Below are positions 1 through 5,000 of a stretch of DNA of 5,000 nt, piece after piece. The notes under the pieces are model-generated. The model worked only from the letters and a program-made list of their open reading frames with translations. It made no database searches and was not told where the DNA came from. Both the position numbers and the translations under genes were made by a program. This DNA is from a virus. Lineage: Duplodnaviria > Heunggongvirae > Uroviricota > Caudoviricetes. Position 1 is the stretch's first letter. Each line of letters opens with the position of its first letter. The stretch is taken from the IMG/VR virus record IMGVR_UViG_2571042870_000016; one strand, 5' to 3'.

Positions 1-201
1 ATGGCAAATAACAAACAAAGACATGTTGATGACATGACGGACTATGCTCGCATCAGAGTTGGCTCGAGGGGAGGTGCTTACATACCCTCTGAGGAAATTG
101 CCAATCTCCCTGAAGTCAGGGATATGCAGCAGCGAGCAGCAGCTATAGTAGGACGAGCTGCTAGAGTGCAAACTATGCAAAAAGCAAAGGAAAAGGTTTA
201 G
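1..201 (+). CDS. Small hypothetical protein (66 aa), first gene of an int-adjacent two-gene cassette
   Basis: Seen in sequence: ATG at 1-3, TAG at 199-201. Its 3' end carries the purine-rich AAGGAAAAGG that serves as the RBS for the next gene, which starts 4 nt after the stop, so the two are likely co-transcribed. C-terminal half is Ala/Arg/Gln/Lys-rich and probably helical. No family recognised. The ORF begins exactly at the window edge, so an upstream extension cannot be excluded. Confidence 0.45.
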   Translation: MANNKQRHVDDMTDYARIRVGSRGGAYIPSEEIANLPEVRDMQQRAAAIVGRAARVQTMQKAKEKV

Positions 202-205
202 CTAG

Positions 206-1057
206 GTGATTGCTTTACTACTGATTCCCATTCTTGTTAGCGGCTACATTTTAGTAGTCGCTAATTTATATCATTACTATCAATTGCATCGATACGATGG
301 CCAACTTTTGTATATAAAAGTTGCAGCTCATGGAACAATGAGTGTTGTTTTTGTGATTTTAGCAGCAGTAGTAGTGAAATATTTCTTTCCTAATTTTCAC
401 CCAATAGGAATGCTTTCAGATATTCTTAATGTCAAGAAAATAATAAATGGTAATAAAGCTGAAACATGGCTTGCTTTGATTTCATTATCATCAATTATAT
501 TTTCTTTAATTTGGGTGGCTTTAGTTTGGTTAAAAAATATGTTTTTTGGTTTCTTTTGTGAAAAGAAACATCATGAAAACATCTTTCATGCTAAGAAACT
601 TAGAGTATTAAGAAAAACAATTTCTAACTCAACTTTGGATAGTATGCTTTTAGATGCATTAGAAAGCAGTCCTAAAGAACCGATTCTAATAACCTTATCT
701 TCACGGAAAGTTTATGTTGGTATAGTTAATGGAATTCAAGAACCAACAGAAAGCGAAGCGCCAAATAGTTATATATCAATTTTCCCTATTATGTCAGGCT
801 ATAGAGATAAAGATACTCTTTCCATCACCTTTACGAATTCATATCCATCAGAAGTACTAGTGAGTTCAGCTATTACAATGGACTCCCAAAAAAGGCATAA
901 AGTGAAAAATATGGATATAATATTTCGTGCTGATGAAATTTCTCATCTTTCATGGTTCGATTTTGAACTATTTGAACAAGTCAATGATTCGATGAAGCAC
1001 GATACCATTGACTTGCGAAGTGAGACTTACTCAGGGGAAACTAGCGAAAATTTTTAG
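206..1057 (+). CDS. Hypothetical membrane protein (283 aa): three predicted N-terminal TM helices plus a roughly 170-aa soluble C-terminal domain; AT-rich cargo gene
   Basis: Seen in sequence: GTG start at 206 with AAGGAAAAGG upstream, TAG at 1055-1057. Hydrophobic stretches at about residues 2-22, 44-66 and 88-110, followed by a Lys/Arg/His-rich segment (KNMFFGFFCEKKHHENIFHAKKLRVLRK), which fits positive-inside topology. Hand counts of sample lines give roughly 22-37% GC here against about 48% in the prophage genes. No catalytic motif recognised. Alternative start at internal ATG (Met44) would delete the first TM helix. Confidence 0.6.
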   Translation: MIALLLIPILVSGYILVVANLYHYYQLHRYDGQLLYIKVAAHGTMSVVFVILAAVVVKYFFPNFHPIGMLSDILNVKKIINGNKAETWLALISLSSIIFSLIWVALVWLKNMFFGFFCEKKHHENIFHAKKLRVLRKTISNSTLDSMLLDALESSPKEPILITLSSRKVYVGIVNGIQEPTESEAPNSYISIFPIMSGYRDKDTLSITFTNSYPSEVLVSSAITMDSQKRHKVKNMDIIFRADEISHLSWFDFELFEQVNDSMKHDTIDLRSETYSGETSENF

Positions 1058-2730: not shown

Positions 2731-3093
2731 TCATTTCTTAGTCTCCGGTGCTTTCGGCATTACTGCCCAGTGAGTGATATTGACGTTTTCAAGGTCCCCG
2801 ACCTGAAATGTCCACTGCCATTCTCCGGTTTCTTTTTGCCCCCATGTGTACCAGAGAGAACGCCAGCCAATCAGCCAGCCTTCTCCACTAGCATCAAATA
2901 ACAGAACACTTTCATTTGCTGGTGGCAGTTCAGCTGACACTGGTATTATTTTGTTTTCCAGTGCCGCACATTTAGCTTCAAGCGCGTTGAATTTACGTAC
3001 CAGGTACTCAGCATTTGTTTCGTTCACTTTCAGATCTCGCGGTACACATCTCCCACGAAGAAACCCTTCCATTTCGAAAACATTCATGCGCAT
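2731..3093 (-). CDS. Prophage early protein, YfdS-like (120 aa) with a Trp-rich C-terminal half
   Basis: Seen in sequence: ATG at 3093 with GGAG 8 nt upstream; TGA at 2733-2731. The start overlaps the upstream HD-protein gene by 10 nt, and an in-frame ATG at 3087 forms ATGA with that gene's stop. C-terminal region GWLIGWRSLWYTWGQKETGEWQWTF is Trp-rich. The YfdS assignment rests on synteny (P-Q-R-S order) and matching length to K-12 CPS-53 from memory, not on sequence recognition. Confidence 0.7.
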   Translation of the reverse strand: MRMNVFEMEGFLRGRCVPRDLKVNETNAEYLVRKFNALEAKCAALENKIIPVSAELPPANESVLLFDASGEGWLIGWRSLWYTWGQKETGEWQWTFQVGDLENVNITHWAVMPKAPETKK

Positions 3094-3620
3094 TTGCGTA
3101 ACTCCGATAACTCGTTAAAGCGTTCCATAAACATCCCGTAGGCATGGCCCGGTGCCAGTGGAATCACGTTGAACATCTCTGTTGCCGGGATACCTTCCAG
3201 TACAGGCCAGAAAGAGCCATCATCAAGCCCGAGATCGCGGCGTTCGGTTGCCAGCATGATGAGATCGGCATATTTCACGGGCGTACTCATAACTGGGGGT
3301 AACCCGTATTTCTCACGGATTACGGCGTCTATTTTTTCTTCCATTTGTTTATAGTCAGGAAGAAGGCGTTTCAGTGGTGCGGGAATGTCCTGGCAATACG
3401 CTTCTGTTGCATCATGCATTAACGCTTCAAAAGCAAATTCCTGCGGCACCAGCTGGCTGCAAAGAACCGCATGTTGGGCGACGCTGTAGAAGTGCGAAAG
3501 ATGACCGGCAAAGCGACAGATATTTGAAAGGGAAACCGCGATATCGTTAATATCGATGTCGTCTTTATTTATCCTGTCATAATAAAAATGCTTCCCGGAA
3601 AAAGTTTTAATAAATGACAT
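3084..3620 (-). CDS. yfdR: HD-domain metal-dependent phosphohydrolase, YfdR-like 5'-deoxynucleotidase (178 aa)
   Basis: Seen in sequence: HD-domain metal-binding motifs are present (GHLSHFYSVAQHAV, ALMHDATEAY, and a downstream Asp in TERRDLGL). The track ORF starts at a GTG at 3647 (187 aa); I place the start at ATG 3620 (MSFIKTF...) because GGAG lies 6 nt upstream, which gives 178 aa and matches the K-12 YfdR length as I remember it. TGA at 3086-3084. Confidence 0.85.
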   Translation of the reverse strand: MSFIKTFSGKHFYYDRINKDDIDINDIAVSLSNICRFAGHLSHFYSVAQHAVLCSQLVPQEFAFEALMHDATEAYCQDIPAPLKRLLPDYKQMEEKIDAVIREKYGLPPVMSTPVKYADLIMLATERRDLGLDDGSFWPVLEGIPATEMFNVIPLAPGHAYGMFMERFNELSELRKCA

Positions 3621-3713
3621 TTTGTTCTCCACGTATATGCGCTGCACCGCGCTGAATTCTGGTAAAAAGAATCCCTCACCATCCTGCGATTATTGAGTAA
3701 ATTACGTTTCCAT

Positions 3714-3735
3714 AAATGCCCCCGCAGGGGCATTT
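3714..3735 (-). terminator. Perfect 9-bp GC-rich hairpin (AAATGCCCC / CGCA loop / GGGGCATTT), 12 nt downstream of the yfdQ-like stop; candidate weak intrinsic terminator or RNA-processing structure
   Basis: Seen in sequence: 3714-3722 pairs perfectly with 3727-3735 around a 4-nt loop. On the minus-strand transcript the stem ends in UUU followed by AUGGAAACG, so there is no full U-tract. It sits in the 127-bp yfdQ-yfdR intergenic spacer. Confidence 0.3.
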
Positions 3736-3747
3736 GCAGTAATGAAA

Positions 3748-4572
3748 TCAGGCGGTGAAAGTACCAATAAAGGTTTCTACTTTGCTGTCCTTGAATTTCT
3801 CAACAAGCAGATCACGAAATTCGTTAGCCATTTCTTCCTGCACCGCCTCCAGCTGAATAATGCGCAGAACCAGTACAGGACGATCGCCAGTGATAATACT
3901 GAGGCGTAATTTAAACGGACGTTCTTTCAGACCTTCAAACGGAACGCATTTAAATTCAAATGCCACTGGCATAATGTCTTTGGTCTTCGCTTCGACAGAC
4001 TCCATCAGGGAGCGTTTGCCGCTGAAGTCATTATCTTCAAAATCAGCGGTCTGGTTTGCTTCAATCGTGATTTTACGGACAGCCGCAGCCGCTTTTGTTG
4101 CCTGAATGGCGTCACCATTAGCATCAAAGCCCACAAGGTAGTCGGCCCAGTCTTCAATCCATTCTGCCAGTGACTTCTGGGAGTTACGCTCGCCGTTAAC
4201 AGACAACAGAGCAGAGAACGGTGCTGTCTTTTTCAGTTTGAGAGTGGCGGTGTTATCTGCGTGACCTGGTTCATCAATAGTACCCAGGTTAAGCACACTG
4301 ACGGCACGCATATTATCGGCATCGATAAAGCAGCGGGTGCCTTCATCTGCAAGAACTTTAGAATAACGGGTAAAGTCATCGATGCTGGCAGTGGAAAGCG
4401 CACCACGGAAACGGAAGCGATTTAAATTAAATTTTTCCAGATCATGAATGCGGAAATTCTCAGGCAATGCCACAGCATCGGCACCAATCTTACTGATAAT
4501 TTCATTAACACCCTGAGCAGAAATAAGGGCATGGATTTGATTAATTGCGGTTGCGTCTAAGTTCTGAGACAT
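3748..4572 (-). CDS. yfdQ: YfdQ-like prophage protein (DUF2303 family, 274 aa)
   Basis: Seen in sequence: ATG at 4572 with GAGGA 6 nt upstream; TGA at 3750-3748. The protein ([28 protein letters not shown]...) and its length match my memory of E. coli K-12 CPS-53 YfdQ, and it sits in the expected position between the YfdP-like and YfdR-like genes. Function unknown. Confidence 0.85.
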
Positions 4573-4637: not shown

Positions 4638-5000
4638 TTAACGACCTGCTGCGCGGAGTTTTCCGTCAGGTTCACCGGCAAGAGTCAGTAATTGTCCCTG
4701 GTCTTCCTGCAGAATAGTCAGGCGACCACCGCGATCGACATACATTGGCGTTTCGGTGGTGTCTTCTTCGGAAATTTTCCCGCGGTTAGTCGGGCGAACA
4801 TATGAGAGTTTGTGTTTGATTTTCACACGGTTCTCATCAAACGGTTCGATTTCCAGATTGAGTGAGACCTTCCCTTTGGTTTTCGTGTTCATCACACCGG
4901 AAGCGACTTCACTGAGAACTGCGCCGATTTTGGTTTCAAATACGCCGCCGTCCAGCTCCCCGATAAATGCCTGCACATCAGTACTGCGTTCGCTAGCCAT
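4638..5000 (-). CDS. YfdP-like prophage protein (120 aa)
   Basis: Seen in sequence: ATG exactly at the window edge (5000-4998), TAA at 4640-4638, 65 bp upstream of the yfdQ-like gene on the same strand. The YfdP assignment rests on synteny and length from memory. The RBS and any upstream extension lie outside the window. Confidence 0.7.
   Translation of the reverse strand: MASERSTDVQAFIGELDGGVFETKIGAVLSEVASGVMNTKTKGKVSLNLEIEPFDENRVKIKHKLSYVRPTNRGKISEEDTTETPMYVDRGGRLTILQEDQGQLLTLAGEPDGKLRAAGR

Follow-up and report, generated by a model that had tools for sequence, protein, structure and literature searches.

An intact yfdR copy, encoding an HD-domain phosphohydrolase, in a decayed Escherichia coli prophage

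The yfdPQRS block of a tRNA-Pro prophage remnant

The window, by which is meant the whole stretch of 5,000 nucleotides analysed here (IMG/VR record IMGVR_UViG_2571042870_000016), matches stretches of Escherichia coli chromosomes, mostly from poultry isolates, at 100% identity. In E. coli NC19 it forms part of a prophage remnant of ~16 kb, which lies between two tRNA-Pro genes and adjoins yejM. The order there is tRNA-Pro, two plus-strand open reading frames (ORFs), int, an ORF in the xis position, a frameshifted ORF and then yfdS-yfdR-yfdQ-yfdP. Past yfdP come fragments of PerC, an adenine methyltransferase, Q and an HNH endonuclease, along with lysis genes, tail-fibre scraps, a DUF262 gene, IS2 and a broken dinI. 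Repressor, replication, capsid and tail genes are all absent from the RefSeq annotation of the whole element; the prophage which carries the window yfdR is a decayed remnant. The features of the window which are needed below, all on the minus strand, are the following.

1041 to 2243, minus: integrase (RefSeq), with a lambda-integrase arm-binding domain
2246 to 2455, minus: small ORF in the xis position (RefSeq), which with the integrase closes the leftward arm (1041 to 2455)
2517 to 2734, minus: small ORF 3' of yfdS, PHROG 1226 (unknown function), a frameshifted pseudogene in RefSeq
2731 to 3093, minus: yfdS (DUF551-like), PHROG 583 at E 1e-80, so named in one RefSeq record
3084 to 3620, minus: yfdR coding sequence, HD-domain 5'-deoxynucleotidase of 178 aa (ORF list, RefSeq name yfdR, PHROG 318)
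3627 to 3630, minus: Shine-Dalgarno sequence GGAG for yfdR, with a 6-nt spacer to the ATG
3748 to 4572, minus: yfdQ (DUF2303), the upstream partner (Pfam DUF2303 at E 8e-92; RefSeq 'YfdQ family protein')
4638 to 5000, minus: yfdP, first of the yfdP-yfdQ-yfdR trio (RefSeq 'protein YfdP', PHROG 204)

The sequence-only reading had placed a prophage-encoded HD-domain protein at 3084 to 3620, and this identification stands, both in the HD ligands of the product (see below) and in its being the YfdR orthologue of a prophage remnant. Indeed, the RefSeq coordinates of the yfdR coding sequence are identical; the minus-strand frame of the ORF list extends over 3084 to 3647, with the yfdR ATG inside it at 3618 to 3620. 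The product is 178/178 identical (100%) to orf32 of Shigella phage SfIV, an inducible phage from which the gene differs at 1 nt in 537, and it is 174/178 identical (98%), with no gaps, to E. coli K-12 YfdR (b2361, in CPS-53). The four substitutions relative to the K-12 protein (K16R, V23D, R92Q and D170E) are of conservative or surface type.

By Megablast, 2971 of 5426 complete E. coli genomes (about 55%) carry yfdR, and RefSeq labels it 'yfdR: 5'-deoxynucleotidase' in all the genomes listed, except for one partial match of 16%. The window protein matches PHROG 318 at E 2.7e-110, a family annotated, Dmp-style, as 'deoxyribonucleoside 5' monophosphate phosphatase', and an exhaustive HMMER scan gives a family of 22,995 cluster representatives at 50% identity (E<=1e-3), with relatives across many hosts, in both temperate and lytic phages. 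From these sequence comparisons the flagged ORF is the YfdR orthologue, a prophage gene which has been named and studied before, and is not new. What the window holds is an intact yfdR copy, correctly identified but ordinary. The discovery value is little, inasmuch as the gene, its enzyme class, its DnaA binding and its early-left operon location have all been recorded before.

The yfdP-yfdQ-yfdR order is common to the window, K-12, SfIV, strain 2009C_3996 and phage phiNP, and the window gene sits in the conserved yfdP-yfdQ-yfdR(-yfdS) neighbourhood of the lambdoid left arm. At the DNA level the similar block runs from yfdS to yfdP and as much as 425 nt further upstream, with 98.5% identity to SfIV (from window coordinate 2740 to 5425) and 97% to CPS-53 (2740 to 5019), and identity is lost outside it. 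The int/xis module, with its lambda-type arm-binding integrase and tRNA-Pro site, is unrelated to those of SfIV and CPS-53. The mosaic joints, at window position 2740 and at window coordinate 5425 (outside the window; position 17425 of the NC19 record, L001), are sharp.

Within the block, the end of yfdR and the beginning of yfdS share 10 nt (3084-3093), likewise in K-12 and SfIV, such that translational coupling is possible; the yfdS product scores 21.5 bits against Pfam DUF551, slightly below the cut-off. The frameshifted ORF at 2517-2734 marks decay beside the intact yfdPQRS. The spacer that separates yfdQ from yfdR holds a perfect 9-bp hairpin, AAATGCCCC-(4 nt)-GGGGCATTT, at 3714-3735 on the minus strand. 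The hairpin has no T-tract, the terminator scan made no call there, and the yfdQ-yfdR spacer (about 127-140 nt) is more stable than its shuffles (z = -3.2). It might act in RNA processing or RNA stability, or else as a pause site under antitermination. YfdQ itself matches PDB 9o7m, 'YfdQ Protein', at E 2e-44; the deposited structure has 36 chains, which suggests that YfdQ forms a large assembly, and our literature search found no paper on this structure.

Two AT-rich ORFs, of 66 aa (1-201, plus strand) and 283 aa (206-1057, plus strand), are flanked by the tRNA-Pro attachment site and by int, in the classic cargo ('moron') position. The sole match of the 283-aa protein is PHROG 3630 (unknown function); homologues of it are located at the ends of the records, or close to them, in Cronobacter phiES15 and Pseudomonas vB_Pae_U5/U6, and ~8 kb inside the record in Klebsiella ST15-OXA48phi14.1. 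The gene is a candidate for an uncharacterised function in lysogen benefit or exclusion. At the far end of the NC19 remnant, the DUF262-domain gene (629 aa) stands beside the IS2 copy (L001 23730-27026).

Fold, family placement and metal ligands of YfdR

An alignment-based AlphaFold model of the window protein, for which the alignment excluded the K-12 sequence, has a pLDDT of 97.6 and a pTM of 0.92 and displays the all-helical HD fold. At the sequence level its tie to YfbR is weak. YfdR scores 25.2 bits on Pfam PF12917 (YfbR-like), for which the cut-off is 25.9, and 20.5 on the YfbR equivalog NCBIfam NF003009, for which it is 122. Its match to the YfbR family models is confined to residues 41-104, and hhalign of YfdR with YfbR gives 95% probability over the HD-E-D-P-K segment only, the N-terminal part of the alignment being unreliable. 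Because both scores fall below the cut-offs, YfdR is only a relative of YfbR; orthology with YfbR was considered and rejected, and family-model comparison places YfdR in the HD superfamily, as a distant YfbR cousin. The 'dNMPase' label of the window protein derives from the published K-12 assay and not from homology to YfbR.

The codons of the metal-ligand residues, again on the minus strand, are as follows, with the alignments to YfbR and to the HD protein of PDB 2gz4.

3471 to 3473, minus: His50, first metal ligand (SVAQH), aligned with the VAQH histidine of 2gz4
3411 to 3416, minus: His69-Asp70, the HD dyad (LMHDATE), which phmmer and hhalign both align with the dyad of YfbR (H69 at 3414-3416, D70 at 3411-3413)
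3387 to 3404, minus: codons 73-78 (EAYCQD) with Glu73 and Asp78, of the YfbR-type HDxxE...GD pattern by alignment to YfbR (E73 at 3402-3404, D78 at 3387-3389)
3264 to 3266, minus: Asp119, distal metal ligand (VKYADLI), aligned with the KKAD aspartate of 2gz4

In the Glu73/Asp78 segment, HDATEAYCQDIPAPLK of YfdR aligns with HDASEVLTGDLPTPVK of E. coli YfbR. The window protein contains the H ... HD ... D motif of the HD superfamily, and the claim that the ligand set is complete is confirmed, in that H50, H69-D70 and D119 can all be read intact from the sequence and its translation. Among 69 relatives from the exhaustive HMMER scan (39-69% identity), H50 is present in 69/69, H69, D70 and D78 each in 68/69, and E73 and D119 each in 67/69.

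YfdR is very probably a small, single-domain, metal-dependent phosphohydrolase of the HD superfamily. His50, His69-Asp70 and Asp119 are expected to hold a divalent metal, presumably the Co2+ which is reported for the clade, and the metal would activate a water molecule for removal of the 5'-phosphate from deoxynucleoside monophosphates. The hydrolysis of dNMPs is reportedly Co2+-dependent.

Early-left position and expression

In intact relatives, the gene order is cro (on the opposite strand), a cI/LexA-type repressor, a terminator, a promoter, yfdP-yfdQ-yfdR, accessory genes and xis-int. The accessory genes which follow yfdR are variable (PAPS-reductase-like, Ea22-like, Eaa and DUF551). The promoter is predicted as TTGACA-16-CATAAT, with 11/12 matches, at 6345-6372 of SfIV (L003) and at 992-1019 of strain 2009C_3996 (L008); Citrobacter phage phiNP, compared in gene order only, has the same arrangement as these two. 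For lambdoid phages the literature places yfdR genes in the early-left operon, and in gene order the position of yfdPQR in the intact relatives is that of the lambda PL operon. The proposal of an early operon is right for the gene family because of this positional match.

For the window copy the proposal fares less well, in that the locus has kept its strand and its xis-int end but has lost the repressor and promoter segment by deletion. The homology to SfIV begins downstream of the candidate early-left promoter, 425 nt upstream of yfdP. A consensus scan found no promoter-like site upstream of yfdP at the window locus; promoter and terminator matches inside the window are no more numerous than expected from shuffled sequence, and none lies between yfdP and yfdS. 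Expression during induction, as envisaged by the sequence-only reading, is not supported for a copy which is without repressor, early-left promoter, replication genes and structural genes. In this remnant, therefore, effects on nucleotide pools linked to induction are not applicable as they were described, and any expression of the window yfdR must come from another source.

These losses raise the question of whether yfdR is here an intact but untranscribed gene in a decaying prophage, contributing nothing to the strain. The size and state of the remnant (~16 kb, with no repressor, replication or capsid genes), the missing early-left promoter segment, the negative scan upstream of yfdP and the frameshift in the gene downstream of yfdS all point in this direction. 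Against it, yfdR and three of its neighbours are intact, and the gene is a single nucleotide in 537 away from that of an inducible phage. Moreover, the differences among the four yfdR alleles of the window, SfIV, K-12 and 2009C_3996 are mostly synonymous, with dN/dS of 0.02-0.06 (dS 0.18-0.23, dN 0.005-0.011), although this selection may act in the phage phase; YfdR is under strong purifying selection, at least across the lineage as a whole. The yfdQ and yfdS genes of CPS-53, which is equally decayed, are linked to stress phenotypes in work cited in PMC4776307, and the outcome of the consensus scan is compatible with weak or read-through transcription. On balance, a silent yfdR is unlikely.

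DnaA binding, nucleotide pools and comparison with known systems

The cellular effects of YfdR have been described for the K-12 proteins by Noguchi and Katayama (PMC4776307), who found yfdQRST as a multicopy suppressor of the over-initiation of hda-185. [quoted passage not shown] Multicopy yfdQRT or yfdQRS inhibits initiation at oriC, and in vitro oriC replication is inhibited by extracts that contain an excess of YfdQRST. [quoted passage not shown] As summarised in the same paper from Zimmerman et al. (2008), YfdR is a structural homologue of YfbR with a much lower nucleotide affinity, and the K-12 protein has a weak 5'-deoxynucleotidase activity (EC 3.1.3.89). The DnaA finding is restated in eLife 2025. 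Deletion of yfdR in an engineered strain did not raise the yield of CMP.

The description of YfdR as a dNMP-degrading enzyme agrees with both RefSeq and the literature in naming it a 5'-deoxynucleotidase; the nucleotide affinity which is reported is low. The further suggestion that the enzyme biases nucleotide pools is overstated, since the best documented cellular effect is, instead, DnaA binding and the inhibition of initiation.

It might then be argued that YfdR serves mainly in host takeover, as an inhibitor of oriC which binds domain I of DnaA, and that the weak dNMPase activity is left over from its HD ancestry. The direct, Phe46-dependent binding of DnaA, the competition with DiaA and DnaB and the multicopy inhibition of initiation (PMC4776307) speak for this, as does the low nucleotide affinity reported there. 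However, the catalytic residues are kept at 97-100% in relatives down to ~40% identity, which include proteins from lytic phages of other bacterial classes, and such near-universal retention in YfdR relatives argues that catalysis is under selection. The lack of an initiation phenotype on deletion of yfdQRST, with the possible overexpression artefact (PMC4776307), also counts against a main role at DnaA, as does the setting of the homologue in phiKT, between a helicase and a DNA polymerase. Such a role is possible but rather doubtful.

With regard to that setting, phiKT is a lytic Escherichia phage of the Autographiviridae, and its YfdR-family gene (L005 4190-4777) is preceded by a DNA helicase and followed by a small 'replication initiation protein' and then by the DNA polymerase. 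The YfdR family sits in replication modules outside the lambdoid phages too.

The account which very probably holds is that the gene encodes the YfdR orthologue, a dNMP-cleaving phosphohydrolase of the HD superfamily and an early-left phage gene product, with DnaA binding as its second role. On this account, yfdP-yfdQ-yfdR would be the first early-left block in lambdoid phages of the SfIV/SfV/ST64B type, transcribed from a repressor-proximal promoter towards xis-int. When abundant, and together with YfdQ and either YfdS or YfdT, YfdR would bind domain I of DnaA at Phe46 and compete there with DiaA and DnaB, such that initiation at oriC would be damped. The window allele, with its four substitutions, presumably behaves like K-12 YfdR, and we infer that the protein naturally serves to adjust host replication and dNMP pools during early lytic growth. 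For the benefit of YfdR to the phage, the candidates are control of dNMP pools, a block on host replication and counter-defence.

The last of these candidates, by which YfdR would remove nucleotide precursors or immune signals and so leave abortive-infection systems untriggered, draws on the phage T5; the sequence-only reading's suggestion that the enzyme degrades defence signalling molecules is pure speculation. In T5, the dNMP phosphatase Dmp overcomes Kongming immunity: it depletes dAMP, from which the dITP signal of that system is made (bioRxiv 10.1101/2024.12.20.629578). The location of yfdR in an early region rich in accessory genes would suit such a function, and, given the low affinity for canonical dNMPs, the substrate that YfdR prefers could be a different one. 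T5 Dmp and YfdR are, however, unrelated: BLASTP gives no significant match and hhalign a probability of 0.1%, and Dmp, despite the PHROG name, was rejected as a homologue and is an analogue only. Our literature searches returned no paper which ties YfdR or its family to defence. PADLOC gives zero matches for YfdR, its neighbours and the two cargo ORFs, and between PADLOC and the T5 Dmp comparison YfdR shows neither a curated defence model nor homology to a nucleotide-depleting anti-defence protein. Furthermore, the trigger of Kongming is a phage dNMP kinase, and none is annotated at the window locus or in the part of SfIV examined (~18.5 of 39.8 kb). Counter-defence is thus quite improbable for YfdR. 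The more specific idea, argued by analogy, that nucleotidases of the YfdR type are convergent counterparts of T5 Dmp, which drain dNMPs or hydrolyse a non-canonical nucleotide and thereby pre-empt signals such as the Kongming dITP, would be a very long shot; if it were true, DnaA binding would be a second layer of takeover.

Set beside known systems, T5 Dmp resembles YfdR in being an early-expressed dNMP phosphatase of a phage, and its role against Kongming is proven, but its phosphatase active site is of the Asp22/Mg2+ kind, and T5 is a lytic phage which degrades host DNA. A related HD enzyme, roseophage DSS3_VP1 Dtm, is a dTMP phosphatase which depends on Co2+ (PMC12697855). Dtm (for dU-DNA) and DatZ of cyanophage S-2L (a dATP triphosphohydrolase, for Z-DNA) serve the wholesale replacement of a base, whereas their partners, such as dCTP deaminase or PurZ, are annotated neither in the window prophage nor in the SfIV region examined (~18.5 of 39.8 kb).

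Among cellular HD proteins, Atu1052 of Agrobacterium tumefaciens (PDB 2gz4), a structural-genomics protein, is 26% identical to YfdR and differs in having short insertions, in being chromosomal and in having no assigned activity. YfbR (PDB 2paq/2par/2pau; PF12917) is similar to YfdR over ~50-70 residues; it is a housekeeping chromosomal enzyme with a much higher nucleotide affinity, whereas YfdR binds DnaA besides. The YfdR of K-12 CPS-53/KpLE1 has the same length as the window protein, and at both loci the gene has yfdP, yfdQ and yfdS as neighbours and overlaps yfdS by 10 nt; CPS-53 is integrated at argW, whereas the window element lies at tRNA-Pro with a different int/xis module.
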